Shown here piece after piece: positions 1 to 16,664 of a stretch of 64,000 nt of DNA. Source of the stretch: Candidatus Omnitrophota bacterium. Its GTDB lineage: Bacteria; Omnitrophota; Gorgyraeia; Gorgyraeales; Gorgyraeaceae. The notes beneath the pieces were generated by a model. That model did not search any database. It was given only the letters and a program-made list of their open reading frames with translations, and was not told the origin of the DNA. The position numbers were made by a program, and so were the translations under genes. How positions within the stretch are numbered: position 1 is the stretch's first letter; each line of letters starts with the position of its first letter. Location: the NCBI GenBank assembly GCA_041653835.1, contig JBAZEP010000003.1:3812-67811 (forward strand), in the 5' to 3' direction.

Positions 1-1515
1 AGAAAAACAAAGAAAGAAGCAGCCATCAAAGAAAAAGATGATAAAAAGCAAACAGCCATAGAGAAAACTAAAGAGGCGCAAGATGCACTCACTAGTATTA
101 AAAATACTTTGAAACACACCCTTAACATTAACGACAAGATTAATTGGAATTCTTTATTGGATGAATCTAAATACCCTAAGAACAAGCCTAAAAGTCCAGA
201 ATTATTTACCATGCCAATTGAGCCCCAGAAAAATGACAAAGAATTTACGCCCAAAATAAACTTTATTATATCGTTGTTTTCTAGTTTAAAACAAAAAAGA
301 ATTGGAGAGGCGAATTGTTTATTCGAACGAGCCTATTCTGAATGGAAAATAAAAAAGAACAGTACGGAAGAAAATAATAGAAAATTACTCGAAAAGTATG
401 AAGAAGAAAGTTTGAAATGGCAAGAAGAGGAGAAAAAATATATTGTAAAGAGAGAAGAGAAAAATAAACGAATTTTAGAAAAAAAGGAAAAGTATTTTAG
501 AAAAGATCCAGCTATGATCGCAGAGTATTGTGAAATGATCTTGTCGAATTCGCAATATCCTGATACCTTTCCGCAGGAATTCGATGTTGAATATATACCC
601 GAATCTAAGATTTTGTTAGTAGATTATTTTCTACCAAGCATAGAAGATTTGCCGACATTAAAGGAAGTCAAATATAACATTTCACAAGACCAATTCAAAG
701 AAATACAAATTTCTGAATCAGATTTAAATAAATTATATGATAGCCTCTTATATCAAATAACACTCAGGACAATGCATGAGTTATATGAAGCAGATGTGAT
801 TGATGCTGTCGCCTCAATTATATTCAATGGATATGTTAGATTCATAGATAGCGGCACAGGAAAAGAAGTTTGTGCCTGCATTCTTTCAATTCAAGTGCAA
901 AGAGAAGATTTCTTAAATATTAATCTTGAGAATATTGAACCTAAAGCTTGTTTTAAAGCTTTAAAAGGCATAGGGAGCAGCAAACTTCACGGACTTGCAC
1001 CAATAGCTCCGATTATGAAACTGAACAAAGAAGATAAAAGATTTATAGTGCCATATGAAGTAGCGGGCAAAATTGATGAAGGAACAAATATTGCGGCAAT
1101 GGATTGGCAAGATTTTGAAAACTTAATTAGAGAACTATTTGAAAAAGAATTTGTTCCCGAAGGAGGAGAGGTAAAAATAACTAGAGCAAGTCGAGATGAA
1201 GGTGTAGATGCGGTAATATTTGATCCTGATCCGATTCGTGGTGGCAAGATTGTGATACAGGCTAAAAGGTATACTAATGTAGTTGGGGTTTCAGCTGTTC
1301 GCGATTTATATGGCACAGTTCTTAATGAAGGAGCGATGAAAGGTATTCTTGTTACCACAGCTGATTATGGTCCTGATTCCTATAAATTTGCCCAAGATAA
1401 ACCAATAACTTTATTAAATGGTAACAACCTTTTGCATCTATTGGAAAAGCATGGTCATAAGGCTAAAATTGATATAAGAGAGGCAAAGAAAATTTTAGGT
1501 AAAAAGGTAACTTGA
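1..1515 (+). CDS. Mrr-type restriction endonuclease catalytic-domain protein. A Lys/Glu-rich coiled-coil N-terminal region is fused to a C-terminal Mrr_cat PD-(D/E)xK nuclease domain. The gene is probably 5'-truncated by the window edge.
   Basis: The frame is open from nt 1, and the ORF track starts at TTG 109. The C-terminus (WQDFENLIRELF...GVDAVIFDPD...IVIQAKRYTNVVGVSAVRDLYG...GILVTTADY) matches the Mrr_cat restriction-endonuclease domain pattern (D..D...QCKRY...V..L.G......GI.VTT..F). The gene is AT-rich. Confidence 0.6.
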   Translation, partial: RKTKKEAAIKEKDDKKQTAIEKTKEAQDALTSIKNTLKHTLNINDKINWNSLLDESKYPKNKPKSPELFTMPIEPQKNDKEFTPKINFIISLFSSLKQKRIGEANCLFERAYSEWKIKKNSTEENNRKLLEKYEEESLKWQEEEKKYIVKREEKNKRILEKKEKYFRKDPAMIAEYCEMILSNSQYPDTFPQEFDVEYIPESKILLVDYFLPSIEDLPTLKEVKYNISQDQFKEIQISESDLNKLYDSLLYQITLRTMHELYEADVIDAVASIIFNGYVRFIDSGTGKEVCACILSIQVQREDFLNINLENIEPKACFKALKGIGSSKLHGLAPIAPIMKLNKEDKRFIVPYEVAGKIDEGTNIAAMDWQDFENLIRELFEKEFVPEGGEVKITRASRDEGVDAVIFDPDPIRGGKIVIQAKRYTNVVGVSAVRDLYGTVLNEGAMKGILVTTADYGPDSYKFAQDKPITLLNGNNLLHLLEKHGHKAKIDIREAKKILGKKVT

Positions 1516-1755
1516 TAATGGTAAATATGGACATGTCAAAAAGGGACACACCTATTTGAAGAGTGTCCCCAGATGACACGTCCCCCATAAGTCCCATCTG
1601 GACATCCCTAGTTAGCAAAACGAGTTTCTCGAGATTTCCTTGAGAAAAAGGCTAAGGGCATATTGATTTCATTGAAAGTTGAAAAAGAACATTCCGCTAA
1701 TAGTTGTTAATAGTAACTTCGCTTGTTTTACCTAACAAATTGTATATTTTTTGCT

Positions 1756-1784
1756 TGACATATTAACAATCATTTGCTAAAGTT
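1756..1784 (+). promoter_or_regulatory. sigma70-like promoter TTGACA-N17-TAAAGT upstream of the HTH paralog array
   Basis: Consensus -35 hexamer and a TAnnnT -10, about 40 nt upstream of paralog 1. Confidence 0.5.
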
Positions 1785-1823
1785 TATAGATAATCAAATG
1801 AGATTATAATAAGGAGGGTGCAA

Positions 1824-2105
1824 ATGGAAAGAATATTGCAAAGAATCGATAATAATTTGAAAATTATATTATCAATTCTACTGGAAAAGAAAATAAAGGA
1901 AGGCAACCTTTCGGACCAACAGCAAGTATCTTTTCTTCAGGAAAGAGGATTAGGGATAGCAGAGATAGCTATGGTGCTAGGTAAAACGTCAAATGCTGTG
2001 CGTATTTTACTCACTCGTTTGCGCAAAAAAGGTCAGAAGATTCCTAAAGGAGGAAATCAATGTCAGAAAAAATTCAAGAAAATCAGGAGATACTTAAGAG
2101 ACTAG
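1824..2105 (+). CDS. small HTH protein (sigma-70 region-4 / resolvase-HTH-like), paralog 1 of 5 tandem copies
   Basis: The RBS AAGGAGGG sits 6 nt upstream of the ATG. A C-terminal HTH (GLGIAEIAMVLGKTSNAVRILLTRLRKK) is shared by the four downstream paralogs. The 3' tail overlaps the start of paralog 2. Confidence 0.55.
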   Translation: MERILQRIDNNLKIILSILLEKKIKEGNLSDQQQVSFLQERGLGIAEIAMVLGKTSNAVRILLTRLRKKGQKIPKGGNQCQKKFKKIRRYLRD

Positions 2106-2287
2106 ATATTATTATTAGATTGCTATTGCGGAATATGAAGTCAAAAGAGAGTAATTTATTATTTATGGAACAGATTGGATTGTTAAAGGAGATAGGTTTA
2201 TCTACAGCAGATATCTCTAAAATAACTGGGAAACCGTCAAATTATGTTAGTTCAGTTATTAAGCATTTATCTAAAAAAAGGGGTTAG
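2060..2287 (+). CDS. small HTH protein, paralog 2 of 5
   Basis: RBS AAAGGAGGA; same L.rLD.iI.LL...G....dIA.ilG...n.V pattern as its neighbours. Confidence 0.55.
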   Translation: MSEKIQENQEILKRLDIIIRLLLRNMKSKESNLLFMEQIGLLKEIGLSTADISKITGKPSNYVSSVIKHLSKKRG

Positions 2288-2292
2288 TAGAC

Positions 2293-2499
2293 ATGGAAGA
2301 AAAAAGCCTTTCAGATTTAAGCAAGAAGGTTGATATGGTAATAAAATTAATGATTGCAGGTTTGACTGCGGATAAACAGTTGACTGACCAAGTAAAAATT
2401 CTTGCTTTGGCTGGAATCAAACCTAAAGATATTGCAGATATTCTAGGAACTACTCCAAATACGGTTAGTGTTCTATTGTCAAGAAACAAGAGAAAGTGA
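2293..2499 (+). CDS. small HTH protein, paralog 3 of 5
   Basis: RBS AAAGGGG; HTH motif IADILGTTPNTVSVLLSRNKRK. Confidence 0.55.
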   Translation: MEEKSLSDLSKKVDMVIKLMIAGLTADKQLTDQVKILALAGIKPKDIADILGTTPNTVSVLLSRNKRK

Positions 2500-2508
2500 G
2501 AGGAGAAT

Positions 2509-2763
2509 ATGGAAAAGAAAAAGCCTAAAAGTAATCCGCAAGATGATTCAGTAGATATGACTAAAGTGCTTCTTGAACGATTGATAGTTATTAGTGAAAA
2601 CTCAATGATCGTAAATCTTGCCCTAAAGGGTATTCCTCATCAACAGATCAGAAAAATGGCACAATGCGATATGCGACGAATAACAAGATTATTAAAACCA
2701 GTTAATAAATATATTAAGAAATTTGTTGCCGAGAACGGGACTATAATAGATAAGGAGAAATAA
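2509..2763 (+). CDS. small HTH-like protein, paralog 4 of 5 (most divergent)
   Basis: RBS GAGGAG. It shares the N-terminal L..LI.I and Q.I.....G pattern, but the HTH is degenerate. Confidence 0.5.
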   Translation: MEKKKPKSNPQDDSVDMTKVLLERLIVISENSMIVNLALKGIPHQQIRKMAQCDMRRITRLLKPVNKYIKKFVAENGTIIDKEK

Positions 2764-2764
2764 T

Positions 2765-2980
2765 ATGTCTAAAGATGATGAAATATTACAAAAGTTAGAT
2801 TTGGTCATCAAATTGTTAGGGATAATAGCCACACAGGCAGATCTGTCAAAAAAACTACAACGAGAACAAATTGTTATCCTGGATAAGCACGGTTTTAGAA
2901 ATAAAGATATTGCAAATATTTTTGGGATTAAAGCACAACAAGTAAACAATGCATTATTAGGTAATAAAAAAAGAAAATGA
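2765..2980 (+). CDS. small HTH protein, paralog 5 of 5
   Basis: RBS AAGGAGA; LQKLDLVIKLL...KDIANIFGIKAQQVNNALLGNKKRK. Confidence 0.55.
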   Translation: MSKDDEILQKLDLVIKLLGIIATQADLSKKLQREQIVILDKHGFRNKDIANIFGIKAQQVNNALLGNKKRK

Positions 2981-4038
2981 TTTTTAAGGGGAAAAAATAT
3001 AAAATTGCAATGCTATTAGGCGCTGGAGCGACTAGGGGAGCATTGAGGGGTGTGTCAAGGCCAGTTATAAGAGCCCCATTAAATAAAGATTTTTTTGAAG
3101 TCGCTAAGAGATTTATTTCTTGCCCAGAAGGTAGAAGATATAAAAATTGTTTTATTCGTGTAAGCAAATTTATTTCTGATCAAATGATGCCGTTTAACAA
3201 AAGGCATCCAACTATGGAAGAAGTTTTTAGCACACTTTTTATGTCTAAAGATTTGCCTGTTATCTTTAAAACAGGAAGGGGTAGAATAAGGAAGGAAGGT
3301 TTTAGGCCTGAAATTAGAGATTTTTTAGTTTTGCTAATTGCTATATTTAGATTTCTTCAAATGAATTTAAAACACAAAGATAACATAGACCATTATGCAA
3401 GATTAGTTGCAAAGTTGGAAGAGGGAGATAGCATTATTACTTTGAATTATGATACTTTAGTAGATAATGCCTTGTTGGGTGTTGGATGGAGACCAGAAAA
3501 TGGCTATGGATTCAACGCTTCTTCTAAAATAATCTATAGTAATTTAAGGGCTGTGAAAAGAAGATTTAAAAATGTTTATCTTTTAAAACCACATGGGTCT
3601 CTAAATTGGTTTGCAAGAGGTAAAATTTCTAATCTTGAAGAAACATTGAGTAGGAAAAATGTTTCAAGGATTGATATTGCAAATGCTCCGCGGCTATATA
3701 CTTTAAAGCAAGATAAGTATGTAAGATTTTTTATTCCCCCTCTTTATACAAAATTTTTCAATAATGATTTCTGGAGATATCTTTGGCATGAATCTTATTT
3801 GAGATTAAAGAATTGTAATTGTTTAATAATAATAGGTTGTTCGTTGATTACAACTGACTATCATTTACGAGCGATACTTTCAAAAGTATTAAAAAGTAAG
3901 AAAAAGTTTAAGAAAATTATCATAGTTGACAAAAATCTAAAAGTAGTGGGTAACCTAAAGAAATTTTTTAGAGGTGCTAGTTTTTCTGGTTGTGAAACAT
4001 ACAATACATTTACGGAATACATAGAAAGTTTAAATTAA
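2977..4038 (+). CDS. SIR2-like (SIR2_2/DUF4020-type) domain protein, candidate NADase defence effector
   Basis: Motifs LLGAGATRGA (glycine-rich NAD-binding), TLNYDTLVDN (TNYD motif) and LLKPHGSLNWF (HG catalytic motif) match defence-associated SIR2_2 proteins. Its start overlaps the stop of HTH paralog 5. Confidence 0.6.
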   Translation: MIFKGKKYKIAMLLGAGATRGALRGVSRPVIRAPLNKDFFEVAKRFISCPEGRRYKNCFIRVSKFISDQMMPFNKRHPTMEEVFSTLFMSKDLPVIFKTGRGRIRKEGFRPEIRDFLVLLIAIFRFLQMNLKHKDNIDHYARLVAKLEEGDSIITLNYDTLVDNALLGVGWRPENGYGFNASSKIIYSNLRAVKRRFKNVYLLKPHGSLNWFARGKISNLEETLSRKNVSRIDIANAPRLYTLKQDKYVRFFIPPLYTKFFNNDFWRYLWHESYLRLKNCNCLIIIGCSLITTDYHLRAILSKVLKSKKKFKKIIIVDKNLKVVGNLKKFFRGASFSGCETYNTFTEYIESLN

Positions 4039-4067
4039 CCAAGTTTATAAAGAATTATGTTAATTTT

Positions 4068-4769
4068 TTGCAAATGCCCAAGAACAGATTAAGCAAAAAA
4101 CTTTTATTAAAAGTTGCTAGTAAGTCTAAACATAAACTTAAATACGTAAGAGAACAAATAAGTAAACGAGCGAGTAGGTTGAGCATTAATGCAGAAGCAG
4201 CTCTGATCCTTTGGGCAAAAGAATTAGGCATAGGGACAGCCGCATTTCAACATTCTTTACCTCCTCATATCCAGTTAGACATTAGAAATAGTTTGTCATC
4301 ACCAGCTGGGCATATTAAGAGCGGGAGAGTATTAAAATCAAAGCGTAATTTAAATATGGTATCCAGTAAATCATTGATTAATATAGACGACTTAATTCAG
4401 GATGATGAGCTTCGCAATAGATGCAAAGATTTATTAATGGCTAAAGATAAGTTTGATCGAGTGATTAGAGAAGCAACGACAGTATTAGATCATCGAATTA
4501 AAAAGGCGGGAGGTTTGAAAAATATAAATCCAGTAGATGCTGTTGGTAAAGTATTAAATCCAGATCCCAATAAAGCCATTCTTAAAATAAGTGAAGAAAA
4601 GTCCTTACAGGAAGGGTTCTTTTCTATATGCAAAGGGCTAATGTTGGCTTTCCGTGATCCAGCACATCATGAGATTACTGATAATTTTAGCAGGGAAGAG
4701 GCAATAAAGTTTTGTGGTTTAGTAGATATTGTTTTGGGAGCTATCTCGAAATCAAGTAAAATAACTTAA
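4068..4769 (+). CDS. HEPN-like (TIGR02391/Abi-type) domain protein
   Basis: The C-terminal region carries an Rx4H-type motif (FRDPAHHE) in a helical context resembling Abi/HEPN RNase families. The gene sits immediately downstream of the SIR2 gene in the AT-rich island. Confidence 0.45.
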   Translation: MQMPKNRLSKKLLLKVASKSKHKLKYVREQISKRASRLSINAEAALILWAKELGIGTAAFQHSLPPHIQLDIRNSLSSPAGHIKSGRVLKSKRNLNMVSSKSLINIDDLIQDDELRNRCKDLLMAKDKFDRVIREATTVLDHRIKKAGGLKNINPVDAVGKVLNPDPNKAILKISEEKSLQEGFFSICKGLMLAFRDPAHHEITDNFSREEAIKFCGLVDIVLGAISKSSKIT

Positions 4770-5001
4770 TGGTTCTGTAGATATGAACTTAAAACTTCAG
4801 CAGTTCCGCAGGTTTTGATTTCGATGTTTTACCAGCCCTAGCAGGTTTGAGAAAAGCTTTTTGTTTTGCGGGACATAAGATATTGCATTGCTGGGATGTT
4901 GCCTGTCAAAACAAAACAGAGCGAAGCCCACATTACCAAATAATCCATCTTTTGGTTGAGCGTCTTTTCGAAAGCCTGACAGGGATGGCAAAAACACCTT
5001 A

Positions 5002-5044
5002 ACCGCGTAGGATGCCTACGGTAACCTACGCGGTTTTTCTTTTT
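5002..5044 (+). terminator. intrinsic terminator (10-bp stem ACCGCGTAGG/CCTACGCGGT + TTTTCTTTTT)
   Basis: Perfect stem with a 13-nt loop and a T-run, in the non-coding zone after the AT-rich island. Confidence 0.75.
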
Positions 5045-5153
5045 CATTGACACTTTTATAATTTCTGGTAAGATATAGGTACAATTTACTTCAAAAGCGC
5101 GACTGGCGATGCATGCATGGGAAACCATGAGGGAGCGCGAATACGCAAAATCG

Positions 5154-5192
5154 AACGCCTGGGTTTTAAGAATCCAGGCGTTTATTGTTTTT
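5154..5192 (+). terminator. intrinsic terminator (9-bp stem AACGCCTGG/CCAGGCGTT + TATTGTTTTT), 3' end of a candidate small RNA
   Basis: Hairpin plus T-tract about 100 nt downstream of the promoter-like TTGACA at 5046. No ORF lies between them. Confidence 0.65.
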
Positions 5193-5211
5193 GGCCCTTG
5201 ACATTTTGCCC

Positions 5212-5490
5212 ATGAATTCAGGATATTACTTTTATATCTTAGTATGTAGCGATGGTTCTAAATATTATGGCCATACAAATAATTTAGCGAAACGTTTTTC
5301 ATATCATTCAAAAGGATGTGTTTCCTCTACAAAAAGCAAGCGGCCGGTAAAGTTGGTTTATTATGAGGAATTTAATTCCCGGCCAGAAGCTTTTAGAAGA
5401 GAAATGCAGTTTAAAAACGGCAGGACAAGAAAAGAGACTATAGAAAACCTAATAAACTCTTTCGACATGGGCAAAATGTCAAGGGTTTAA
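5212..5490 (+). CDS. GIY-YIG nuclease superfamily protein (YhbQ/UPF0213-like), copy 1
   Basis: [30 protein letters not shown]...[11 protein letters not shown]...[11 protein letters not shown] matches the GIY-YIG motif. The track ORF starts at TTG 5185; the ATG is at 5212. Confidence 0.7.
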
Positions 5491-5566: not shown

Positions 5567-7777
5567 ATGTTCACACGCGGACGTTGGGACAAAACAATAG
5601 ATATAAGGGATTTTATTAATAGGAATTATAAGCCGTATGACGGGGATGAGTCATTTTTGTGCGGGCCTACAGCCAGGACCAAAAAACTCTGGCAGGAATG
5701 CCTTACGCTTTTCAAGAAAGAGCACGATAAAGGCGGGGTTTTTGATATCGACGTATCAACTGTATCGACTATCACAAGCCACAAGCCCGGTTATATAGAT
5801 AAGAAGCTTGAGATCATTAAGGGACTGCAGACCGATAAGCCGCTTAAAAGGGCGATAAAGCCGCTGGGCGGCATACGCATGGTGGAGCAGGCCTGCGAGG
5901 ACTATGGGTATGAACTGGATAATAAGATCAAAGAGATATATTTAAAATATCGCAAGACGCATAATGACGGTGTGTTCGATTCTTATACCACGGATATATT
6001 AAGGGCCAGGCGCACAGGACTTATTACAGGCCTGCCGGATAATTATTCAAGGGGAAGGATAATAGGCGATTATAGACGCGTGGCGCTCTACGGCATAGAA
6101 AAGCTTATTAAAGCGAAAAAACATGATAAGGAGCTATTAGAGGATTATTCTTCCCAGGAGGCAGTAAAGTTAAGGGAAGAGATAGCTGACCAGATAGGAG
6201 CCTTGGAAGATATTATAAAATTAGGTAGCTCCTACGGCTTTGACCTGACAAGGCCGGCGGAAGACGCGAAAGAAGCTTTCCAATGGGTTTATCTGGCTTA
6301 TCTCGCGGCCATAAAGGAACAGGACGGGGCAGCAATGAGCCTTGGAAGCGTGAGTAATTTCTTTGATATATACATTGAAAGAGATATTAACCTGGGAAAA
6401 TTGACTGAAGAAAAGGCTCAGGAACTGGTGGATGACTTTGTGATAAAACTGCGCATGGTGCGGCACTTAAGGCCAAAATCATATGATGAGATATTCGCGG
6501 GCGATCCGGTATGGATAACAGAGAGTATAGCGGGGATAGGTATAGACGGCAGGCACAAGGTCACAAAGACATCTTACAGGTTCTTACAGACTTTATACAA
6601 CCTGGGGCCTGCTCCTGAGCCGAATCTTACGGTTTTGTGGTCATCCCGGCTTCCTGAGAATTTTAAGAGATTCTGCGCGAAAGTTTCCATTACCACGAGC
6701 TCTATCCAGTATGAGAATGATGACCTGATGCGCTCCATAGGCGGGGATGATTACAGTATTTCATGCTGTGTGTCGCTTTTAAAGAACGGAAGTGAGATGC
6801 AGTATTTCGGGGCGAGATGTAATCTCGCGAAGGTATTGCTCTACGCGCTAAATGAGGGAAGGGATGAGATCACAGGAGAAACAGTTGTCCCGGGCATAGC
6901 GCCTATAAGTTCTGAGCCACTAGACCATGATGAGGTAAAAGAGCGTTTTATGCAGGTCCTGCGCTGGACCACGAGGACATATGTCCAGGCGCTTAATATC
7001 ATCCATTCAGTGCATGATACGTATTATTACGAACGCTCGCAGATGGCTTTACTTAATACGGAACTCACGCGTTATATGGCATTCGGCATAGCCGGCTTGT
7101 CTGTAGTGGCTGATTCTTTAAGCGCTATACGTTACGCCAAAGTCAGCGCTATACGCAATAATAAAGGCCTTACAACGGATTTTAAGATCAAGGGAGATTT
7201 TTACGCATTTGGGAATGATGATGACAGGGTGGATGGGAGAGTCGTGGACCTCGTTACCACGTTCCTCTCTGAGATCAAAAAACATAAATTTTACAGGGAT
7301 TCTCTTCCCGCGGTTTCTATCCTTACAATTACTTCGAACGTAATGTATGGCAAGAAAACAGGCGCTACCCCTGACGGAAGGAAAAAAGGCGAACCTTTTG
7401 CCCCAGGCGCGAATCCCATGCACGGCAGGGATAAAAACGGGATAGTGGCATCTTTAAATTCCGTAGCGAGTATCCCTTATTCCGAATGCAGGGATGGTAT
7501 ATCGAACACATTTACCACTGTGCCGGATACATTGGGGAAGACTAAGGACGAGCGGATAACGAACCTCGCGGGTTTACTCGAAGGATATTTTATTAAAGGC
7601 GCACAGCACTTGAATGTCAATGTGATAGATAAGGCGACGCTTAAAGACGCGATGAAGCATCCGCATAAATATCCGCAGTTAACTATCCGCGTGTCAGGAT
7701 ACGCTGTTCATTTTAATAAGTTGTCAGGTGAACAGCAGAGAGAGGTCCTGGCAAGGACATTTCATGAAAGCATGTAA
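5567..7777 (+). CDS. pflB: formate C-acetyltransferase (pyruvate formate-lyase)
   Basis: The N-terminus ([20 protein letters not shown]) and the C-terminal glycyl-radical motif (RVSGYAVHF) are both present; the protein is 736 aa. Confidence 0.95.
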
Positions 7778-16483: not shown

Positions 16484-16524
16484 GTTGACAATCGCGCTTT
16501 AAAATGATTTAATAAGATAAATAA

Positions 16525-16664
16525 CGGGGAGGCCGCTGGATCGCGGCCTGAGAGTTCCGTGGAGCGAACGGATTACCCTTTGAACCTGAACTGGATAATG
16601 CCAGCGTAGGGAAAGATGTTAATTGTTCCGGCCCTTACGCGTTGTGTGTAAGGGTTATTTTTTT
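16525..16664 (+). promoter_or_regulatory. TPP (THI-box) riboswitch with intrinsic-terminator expression platform
   Basis: The conserved CUGAGA and ACCCUUUGAACCUGA.CUGGAUAAUGCCAGCGUAGGGAA core is present. It is followed by hairpin CCCTTAC...GTAAGGG plus a T-tract at 16632-16664, directly upstream of thi4. Confidence 0.85.

Follow-up and report, generated by a model that had tools for sequence, protein, structure and literature searches.

The subject of this report is a seven-gene operon in a 64,000-nucleotide (nt) stretch of contig JBAZEP010000003.1 from Candidatus Omnitrophota bacterium (NCBI GenBank assembly GCA_041653835.1), hereafter the window. All coordinates are positions in the window; L followed by a number denotes a fetched relative locus, L001 being a near-identical copy of the module. 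The operon follows an Mrr-type gene and consists of five small helix-turn-helix (HTH) genes, then a SIR2 gene and then a Ymh-HEPN gene, all on the plus strand. A first-pass annotation, made from the letters alone, had proposed that the last two genes form a two-gene abortive-infection module, with the Mrr-type protein as a possible sensor. It made no mention of the five tightly packed open reading frames (ORFs) of 68-93 amino acids (aa) at 1824-2980, between the Mrr-type gene and SIR2. Its observations proved right, and its interpretation is partly supported.

The operon, its proteins and its borders

The SIR2 gene (2977-4038) encodes a protein of 353 aa with the motifs GAGATRGA, TLNYDTLV and KPHGSLNW, exactly as first annotated. 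Pfam SIR2_2 (PF13289) matches it at 28.8 bits against a cut-off of 24.5, which places it in the superfamily, and is the sole domain detected. Given that full-length relatives are all 342-368 aa long, the protein is of a single domain, and the earlier statement that it carries a catalytic domain and no sensor domain holds. An alignment of 25 homologs (36-67% identity) shows no variation at G15, G17, A18, N157 and H206 and almost none at D159; N157, D159 and H206 are the putative catalytic residues. PADLOC SIR2 models match partially (best E 1e-9, Aga_SIR2, residues 125-320), NCBIfam SIR2_antiphage scores 19 bits against a cut-off of 500, and a sequence search of solved structures returned no meaningful match. 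SIR2_2 domains of defence systems consume nicotinamide adenine dinucleotide (NAD+), and the conserved catalytic residues fit the prediction that the window protein does the same. Among the relatives, L030:848-1989 holds a frameshifted SIR2 split into pieces of 230 and 184 aa, and L035 and L036 hold only C-terminal SIR2 fragments, one of them next to a small-HTH match. Such copies seem to be in decay, which would agree with a costly gene.

The Ymh gene encodes a predicted RNase effector of 231 aa (4074-4769); public calls of the identical protein start at ATG 4074, and the 233 aa originally reported are obtained from a TTG at 4068 (4068-4769). The protein matches Pfam Hypoth_Ymh (PF09509) at E 6.9e-13, a family listed by Anantharaman et al. 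(PMC3710099) among the HEPN families with a conserved Rx4-6H motif. The motif FRDPAHHE is present as first described, and its residues R196, H200 and H201 (FRxxxHH) are invariant in 22 homologs. Membership in the HEPN superfamily and the Ymh family is thus confirmed, as is the fold. The score against TIGR02391 (32.5 bits) falls below the cut-off of 39.45, although NCBI still names the identical protein 'TIGR02391 family protein'. From its N-terminus, the protein is made up of a conserved domain of five helices (residues 10-77), a linker that is disordered (78-102) and the HEPN domain (106-227). HEPN domains with Rx4-6H cleave RNA, and the conserved residues fit such an activity here, which we infer for this protein. 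A sequence search of solved structures found no meaningful match. The idea that the N-terminal domain is a fused copy of a small HTH protein was rejected, hhalign finding no relation; a domain in common with the HEPN_Swt1 protein of L127 is unproven (hhalign probability 4%).

The five small genes encode paralogs with an N-terminal amphipathic helix, a three-helix HTH and a basic C-terminal tail, and most have their own Shine-Dalgarno sequence. The first (1824-2105, 93 aa, type E) starts with ATG after a Shine-Dalgarno sequence and matches the family hidden Markov model (HMM) at E 8.5e-20. The second (2060-2287, 75 aa, type F, motif GKPxNYV) matches it at E 1.2e-24 and finds its best matches among Ymh-linked array members; the third (2293-2499, 68 aa, type A, motif TTPNTV; HMM E 2.2e-22) is closest to a Ymh-array member at position -2. 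The fourth (2509-2763, 84 aa, type B, motif CDxxRIxR) has its best matches among genes at Ymh position -1, type B being the type that usually stands immediately before Ymh. The fifth (2765-2980, 71 aa, type K, motif GIKxQQVxNAL) has its best matches, at 57-59% identity, in the genes that immediately precede SIR2 in L002 and L013, and is taken as the cognate partner on the SIR2 side; its stop codon and the SIR2 start share 4 nt (ATGA). Between the window and the sister copy in L182 (see below), all seven genes are under purifying selection, with ratios of nonsynonymous to synonymous substitution (dN/dS) of 0.10-0.23: 0.23, 0.21, 0.17, 0.15 and 0.15 for the small genes in order, 0.10 for SIR2 and 0.20 for Ymh. 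The values of 0.15-0.23 show that the small ORFs are genuine genes. RNA antitoxin repeats of the type III toxin-antitoxin kind were rejected, since 1500-3000 contains no tandem DNA repeats and the small ORFs are conserved as proteins under purifying selection.

The small HTH family as a whole (60-95 aa) has no Pfam model above threshold. It bears a weak likeness to region 4 of sigma70: Pfam Sigma70_r4_2 reaches E 3e-4 for the first small protein, under the cut-off, and is weak for the third along with HTH_23, while NCBIfam matches are to the C-terminal regions of extracytoplasmic function (ECF) sigma factors. The proteins do not belong to the sigma-70 factors, scoring 20.7 and 20.3 bits against a cut-off of 25.7 and being 68-95 aa long with no region 2. 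An AlphaFold model of the fifth small protein (predicted local distance difference test, pLDDT, 83) consists of a helix at residues 3-24 followed by the three-helix HTH. Foldseek pairs it with HTH domains of sigma region 4, LuxR and resolvases, all at weak, non-significant levels, and one of these matches is SigL region 4 bound to an anti-sigma factor. It could be imagined from this that the small proteins are decoys or guards, which mimic a host target of phage proteins, for example the sigma region 4 of RNA polymerase to which anti-sigma factors or appropriators bind, and hold the effectors inactive until a phage protein attaches to them, with an array representing several decoy specificities. 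The sigma likeness (Sigma70_r4_2 E 3e-4 to 4e-4, and the ECF matches), the SigL complex and the diversification of paralogs in arrays would agree with this, but the similarities are all below threshold and generic for three-helix HTH domains, and the paralog types distal to the effector are conserved across phyla rather than hypervariable. We consider this explanation quite improbable.

An exhaustive profile search with the small HTH family gave 1,880 clusters at 50% identity (E <=1e-3); the true number is at most this, since generic poly-HTH proteins are included in the count. None of the small-HTH matches returned by the indexed database carries a Pfam annotation. Candidate effector-HTH fusions among the long matches were rejected as generic poly-HTH repeat proteins (HTH_23 and similar). 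Thus P0348, P0351, P0366 and P0372 (268-800 aa) contain 5-12 near-identical tandem HTH repeats, for example ILELLEKGLSQKEVGEQLGVS, and are generic HTH_23/HTH_24 proteins. The sole fusion type seen is that of P0395 and P0410 (136-152 aa), in which two complete small-HTH units stand head to tail, and this suggests that neighbouring array members can act together.

The borders of the module are given by L182, which carries the same seven genes at ~90% nt identity (blastn). The homology begins exactly at window position 1614 and ends at the Ymh stop codon, and the flanks are unlike on either side: upstream, L182 has a truncated tRNA-like sequence where the window has the Mrr gene, and downstream it has other ORFs and an AbiJ-like gene. 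The exact borders and differing flanks define 1614-4772 as a discrete, horizontally mobile unit of 3.16 kb from which the Mrr gene is excluded. Since the Mrr gene ends before the shared segment starts and so lies outside the conserved module, the proposal that its product serves as the sensor is rejected. Beyond the 3' end of the sister module, L182:3399-4898 contains a 144-aa ORF with a P-loop-like GKAKSGKS motif and a 70-aa ORF, with an AbiJ_NTD5/Abi_C gene and an Xre-type HTH gene on the opposite strand; this is a defence-type neighbourhood.

The left edge of the module, its promoter and its leader occupy 1614-1823 (plus strand; ~90% nt identity to L182 from 1614 on). A promoter scan found sigma70-like hexamers, TTGACA-17-TAAAGT at 1755-1783 and TTTATA-16-TATAAT at 1783-1810, and a Shine-Dalgarno sequence AAGGAGG (1812-1818) closes the leader. 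The inverted 9-mers TTGTTAATA and TATTAACAA lie within the arms, 1696-1712 and 1761-1777, of an inverted repeat (I12), and are a candidate operator. These arms and the -35 hexamer fall in the leader blocks that are best conserved between the window and L182.

Neighbours of the SIR2 and Ymh relatives

Loci of relatives were fetched, and all ORFs of at least 40 aa were scanned with HMMs made from a small HTH, a SIR2 and a Ymh alignment. Close SIR2 relatives, defined by >400 bits and 35-65% identity, occupy 25 distinct loci, and in every one of the 25 a small-HTH gene is directly adjacent on the same strand. It lies upstream of SIR2 in the clade of ~50% identity and downstream in the clade of ~39%. 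They are found in Chloroflexota, Clostridia, Acidobacteriota, Verrucomicrobiota, Planctomycetota, Nitrospirota, Binatota and an Aenigmatarchaeote (DPANN). Distant SIR2 proteins (<130 bits) have no small-HTH neighbour. For Ymh, 1-5 small-HTH genes lie within 400 nt upstream in 61 of the 69 loci with enough sequence, at gaps mostly of -20 to +50 nt, and the same is seen in complete or long genomic contigs, such as that of Sulfurifustis variabilis.

The two effector genes themselves do not travel together. Besides the module copies L001 and L182, no Ymh gene occurs in any of the 24 other distinct close-SIR2 loci; conversely, SIR2 is absent from all 80 metagenomic Ymh loci (45 of them with >1.5 kb of upstream sequence) and from L172, L173 and L176, that is, from more than 80 Ymh loci. 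L182 is the only other place found where the two stand together. Small genes but no SIR2 lie upstream of the nearest Ymh relative outside the module (L176, 59% identity). For the closest SIR2 relative (65%, L175), the contig ends 63 nt past SIR2, and its downstream side is not informative. Hence, homologs of the two genes essentially never co-occur elsewhere, the L182 copy excepted, and a dedicated SIR2-HEPN pair is not supported; each effector has its own widespread cassette with small HTH partners. It is therefore very improbable that SIR2 and HEPN form one coupled two-gene abortive-infection system, in which one protein senses for or activates the other, or the SIR2 product activates the RNase. 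In its favour, the genes are co-transcribed neighbours with a gap of 35 nt, the composite recurs at 90% nt identity in the second context of L182, and the Argonaute-associated list of PADLOC includes SIR2 and HEPN models, which the window proteins match weakly. Against these points stand the missing co-occurrence and the fact that each effector has a cognate small partner of its own. The association with Argonaute hinted at by the PADLOC model names was likewise rejected, as no Argonaute gene lies nearby.

The cassettes are widely spread by horizontal transfer. Near the SIR2-family loci, type I restriction-modification (R-M) methyltransferase and specificity subunits each account for 3-5 of 125 neighbouring ORFs (~22 loci); other neighbours include SoFic and MADS components and AIPR, with AbiJ beside L182. 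Carriage by phages or plasmids was considered and dropped, there being no close relatives in IMG/VR viral contigs, PLSDB plasmids or PHROGs. These observations bear on whether the cassettes could be selfish toxin-antitoxin units that stabilise themselves or their island and have no role in phage defence. Such addiction would suit compact cassettes that have no sensor domains, lie between housekeeping genes in many genomes and have spread widely by horizontal transfer. Nevertheless, their frequent adjacency to R-M and Abi genes, the lack of relatives on PLSDB plasmids or in IMG/VR viral contigs, and effector types identical to those of known defence systems make this explanation improbable. A role in abortive infection or genetic conflict, as originally suggested, remains plausible, with a low-GC island beside an Mrr restriction gene in the window and relatives often next to R-M or Abi genes; what falls away is its two-gene form.

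Order and co-variation of the small genes, and the flanks of the module

Clustering of 177 non-redundant small proteins gave one large cluster of 72, of which 69 are encoded one to three places ahead of Ymh (68 of these at -1 or -2) and 2 have no assigned position; the window gene at 2509-2763 is its sole member at a SIR2 position. The best match of a SIR2-adjacent small protein is another SIR2-adjacent one in 19 of 22 cases, and the best match of a Ymh(-1) protein is another Ymh(-1) protein in 44 of 57. Thus, the effector-proximal partner co-varies with the effector. The gene order recurs as well: [J/F][A/H/G][B/D/I][C] precedes Ymh, 'L K SIR2' is found where the small genes are upstream of SIR2, and '[100-130 aa wHTH] SIR2 E' (wHTH, winged HTH) in the clade with downstream small genes. 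In this last clade (~39% identity; L015-L034, e.g. L026:5638-5976 and L034:5637-5975), a conserved winged-helix protein of 100-130 aa is encoded directly upstream of SIR2, with the motifs LLxCLxHVxGR...AFNLCDGT...GNLSR...RWVENG and weak HTH_47 and MarR matches, to give a three-gene unit of wHTH, SIR2 and small HTH.

The F-A-G array is seen ahead of SIR2 in L006 and again ahead of Ymh in L151. Judging from this distribution, the distal array members seem effector-agnostic and the proximal ones effector-specific. In the window, four of the small genes have their best matches in or alongside Ymh arrays and the fifth groups with SIR2(-1) genes, in the order E F A B / K SIR2 / Ymh. The window therefore reads as a canonical Ymh array (E F A B, Ymh) into which, after the B-type gene and ahead of Ymh, a 'K + SIR2' cassette has been inserted.

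Members of the small HTH family also stand beside other effector-like proteins, namely a HEPN_Swt1/PDC-M34B protein (L127), a DUF4062 protein (L132), a Schlafen/AlbA_2 protein (L176), a membrane protein (L143) and, after a MarR-like wHTH gene, a PDC-M36A-like protein (L171), with a similar combination of wHTH gene and protein in L174 and L184. DUF4062 has recently been reported as a TIR-like NADase family (bioRxiv 10.64898/2026.05.01.722283). The cassette in L171:3369-4503, L174:5446-6538 and L184:2384-3527 comprises three small HTH genes, a MarR-like wHTH gene (~124 aa) and a gene for a protein of 228-260 aa with no Pfam match; that of L171 has the PADLOC PDC-M36A match and a D...ExK-like motif, and the last gene of the cassette is apparently missing in L183.

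What the small proteins do can be approached from two sides. One possible, if unlikely, explanation is that they are purely transcriptional regulators, in the manner of CapH/CapP, BrxR/CapW or CapK/CapS, which stand ahead of many immune operons; they would make no contact with the effectors, which would be active once made, and the operon would be silent until a signal arrives. The HTH fold and basic C-terminal tails, the conserved promoter-proximal inverted repeat, the small genes diverging around a common intergenic region in L008, L100 and L160, and the effector-agnostic distal members all suit this explanation; moreover, one report (PMC13373217) presents regulators linked to many different immune operons as a known class of DNA-binding proteins. 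However, pure regulators would hardly account for an effector-proximal member that co-varies tightly with the effector type, for the frequent 4-nt translational coupling to the effector, which is more typical of stoichiometric partners, or for a gene order that flips between SIR2 clades as in toxin-antitoxin pairs. One repressor would also be enough, yet 3-5 conserved paralogs are retained. Furthermore, unlike the regulators named, the small HTH proteins have no protease, kinase or WYL sensor domain, and occur as several tiny paralogs per locus, the effector-proximal ones co-varying with the effector. A partner that is conserved, translationally coupled and co-varying, in a gene order that varies, is best explained as a cognate neutraliser and/or repressor, in the manner of a type II or tripartite toxin-antitoxin system or of a promiscuous antitoxin such as Panacea.

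The surroundings of the module in the window can be described briefly. The restriction gene at positions 1-1515, Mrr-like and of type IV (PADLOC mREase_IV, E 2.4e-60; Pfam Mrr_cat), is cut by the left end of the window; with the N-terminus taken from L001, its protein has ~550 aa. The Mrr gene is as low in GC content as the module (28-36% in both, vs ~44-51% in the adjacent core genes), yet lies outside the segment common to the window and L182. On the right, the ~230 nt between the Ymh stop codon and a GC-rich hairpin (4770-5000) are of ~38% GC, above that of the module, are not shared with L182 and hold just two doubtful minus-strand ORFs (66 and 96 aa). The hairpin itself, followed by a T-run (5001-5035, plus strand; inverted repeat I15, from reading the sequence), is a probable but tentative operon terminator; it is outside the L182-shared segment and not among the sites listed by a consensus terminator scan. 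Next come a ZMP/ZTP (pfl-motif) riboswitch at 5089-5171 (Rfam, 45.6 bits) and a terminator-like hairpin at 5153-5183. The gene that follows the riboswitch is not directly pflB but a small GIY-YIG gene (likely ATG 5212, stop 5490), flanked by a perfect 20-nt inverted repeat (5195-5214 and 5466-5485; 0 chance matches expected). With pflB starting at 5567, a compact GIY-YIG element is apparently lodged between the riboswitch and the pfl-pflA-fhs genes. A thiamine pyrophosphate (TPP) riboswitch lies farther on in the window, at 16515-16629 (Rfam RF00059, 61.6 bits).

Relation to known systems and a proposed mechanism

The window SIR2 resembles the SIR2 proteins of defence systems (ThsA, DSR1/DSR2, SIR2-HerA and SIR2-APAZ) in its SIR2_2-type Rossmann domain, its lack of a zinc ribbon and its GAGxS/T, N...D and H motifs, from which NAD+ consumption would be expected. 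NADase activity of DSR2 and related systems is described in two reports (PMC11263360, PMC11850899). The window protein differs from all of them in being a single domain of ~350 aa without SLOG, C-terminal sensor or APAZ, and in having as its partner an HTH protein of 60-95 aa, joined in one clade by a wHTH protein. Specifically, Thoeris combines SIR2 with a SLOG/Macro sensor and a TIR-domain ThsB, whereas here SIR2_2 is the sole domain, ThsA and ThsB have no PADLOC match and the operon has no TIR gene. DSR1 and DSR2 have ~1000 aa with a C-terminal sensor region, as against 342-368 aa in the window family. No HerA is found in the window operon or among the top families of the relatives' neighbours, which sets SIR2-HerA apart, and for the short prokaryotic Argonaute system with SIR2 (SPARSA) there is a partial Aga_SIR2 match but no Argonaute in the operon or among the relatives' called neighbours.

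On the side of the HEPN protein, Ymh has neither the MNT partner nor the RnlB partner when compared with HepT-MntA, RnlA and AbiD/F, its partners being the small HTH genes, and it differs from HEPN toxins in having its own conserved five-helix N-terminal domain, to which no fold class is assigned. The PD-lambda-3 B model covers only the HEPN domain (E 1.7e-5), and PD-Lambda-3_A has no match among the neighbours; the A component is reported with a PD-(D/E)xK nuclease domain, whereas the Mrr gene upstream in the window matches mREase_IV. Ymh proteins have been described as solo proteins or in fused form with pMORC, AbiJ-NTD1 or AbiTii in R-M contexts (PMC3710099), arrangements that differ from the small-HTH array plus Ymh seen here.

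As for the partners, the hyperpromiscuous antitoxin domains of Panacea (PanA) and the NetFlax network are precedents for one small partner family combined with many unrelated toxins (PMC8832971, PMC10440598). The present cassettes share with them and with tripartite toxin-antitoxin systems such as omega-epsilon-zeta a small partner family found with many effectors, tight coupling, variable order and wide horizontal spread. They differ from Panacea in that the partner is a sigma-region-4-like HTH protein and not DUF4065, and that 2-5 paralogs form ordered arrays in place of one gene. SIR2 is not mentioned in the NetFlax paper, which states that multigene systems are not predictable by its method. 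A type II toxin-antitoxin system would require, besides adjacent co-transcribed genes, a toxic protein and a labile protein antitoxin that neutralises it by direct binding and autoregulates the operon; what is seen here is adjacency, coupling of translation, a gene order that varies and co-variation of the partners. Literature searches (TIGR02391/Ymh, PD-lambda-3, SIR2 toxin-antitoxin, NetFlax/Panacea and DUF4062/SIR2/HEPN/HTH) found no description of this arrangement, although their coverage is incomplete and an earlier description is possible. The effectors are new members of known superfamilies, and the literature searched yielded no account of ordered small-HTH arrays whose effectors can be swapped.

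Taken together, these results lead us, with moderate confidence, to view the operon as two toxin-antitoxin-like or defence cassettes nested in one mobile operon, in which the small HTH proteins serve as cognate neutralisers and/or repressors. The architecture is that of an ordered small HTH array followed by a swappable effector, with the K-SIR2 cassette nested in the Ymh array. It is established by the gene content, borders, conserved adjacency and partner co-variation, whereas the enzymatic activities, toxicity, neutralisation and DNA binding in the following scheme are inferred. SIR2 would deplete NAD+ by consuming it and Ymh-HEPN would cleave RNA, each able to arrest growth by itself. The effector-proximal small protein, K for SIR2 and B for Ymh, would act as the cognate neutraliser and/or repressor, and the distal E, F and A, types that also stand before other effectors, would form a shared regulatory or sensing layer at the promoter-operator region (~1696-1777). 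Were the small proteins lost, titrated or inactivated during phage infection or when the element is lost, both effectors would be freed in parallel.

Several observations weigh against this interpretation. Roughly one in two of the related loci lies among housekeeping genes and not in a defence island. The small HTH proteins could be plain transcription factors, and arrays of 3-5 conserved paralogs exceed what a simple toxin-antitoxin pair needs. The specificity of the partners is not absolute: in some loci, such as L006, the SIR2-adjacent gene belongs to a type that occurs beside Ymh as well. For Ymh, which lies 35 nt after SIR2, no obvious Shine-Dalgarno sequence is seen. Finally, the composite has been kept intact across two lineages at ~10% nt divergence, which leaves room for some functional synergy of SIR2 and Ymh inside the module.

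A bolder reading, which we regard as speculative and rather unlikely, is that ordered arrays of small stand-alone sigma-region-4-like proteins provide sensing and control, as a chassis, for a new class of modular immune systems that is widespread in Bacteria and Archaea, including the Candidate Phyla Radiation (CPR) and DPANN. The mini-proteins would then be guarded decoys or multi-subunit DNA-bound sensors and not simple antitoxins, and SIR2, Ymh-HEPN, Swt1-HEPN, DUF4062 (TIR-like NADase), Schlafen/AlbA_2 and a restriction-endonuclease-like protein would be the plug-in effectors. If so, the window would be a natural stack of two effectors.

For interpreting such loci, the case illustrates that the adjacency of two effector genes at a single locus can come from the nesting of cassettes and not from functional coupling. 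The module is small (3.2 kb), has defined borders and could be moved directly into a test host. The attractive but unsupported idea of an NADase-RNase pair is replaced by a broader and testable one: a family of small proteins that no Pfam model matches above threshold turns up as the shared partner of at least six effector types in many phyla. Should its members be neutralisers or sensors, they would form a promiscuous control module of a new kind, serving SIR2 and HEPN effectors that here lack a sensor of their own.

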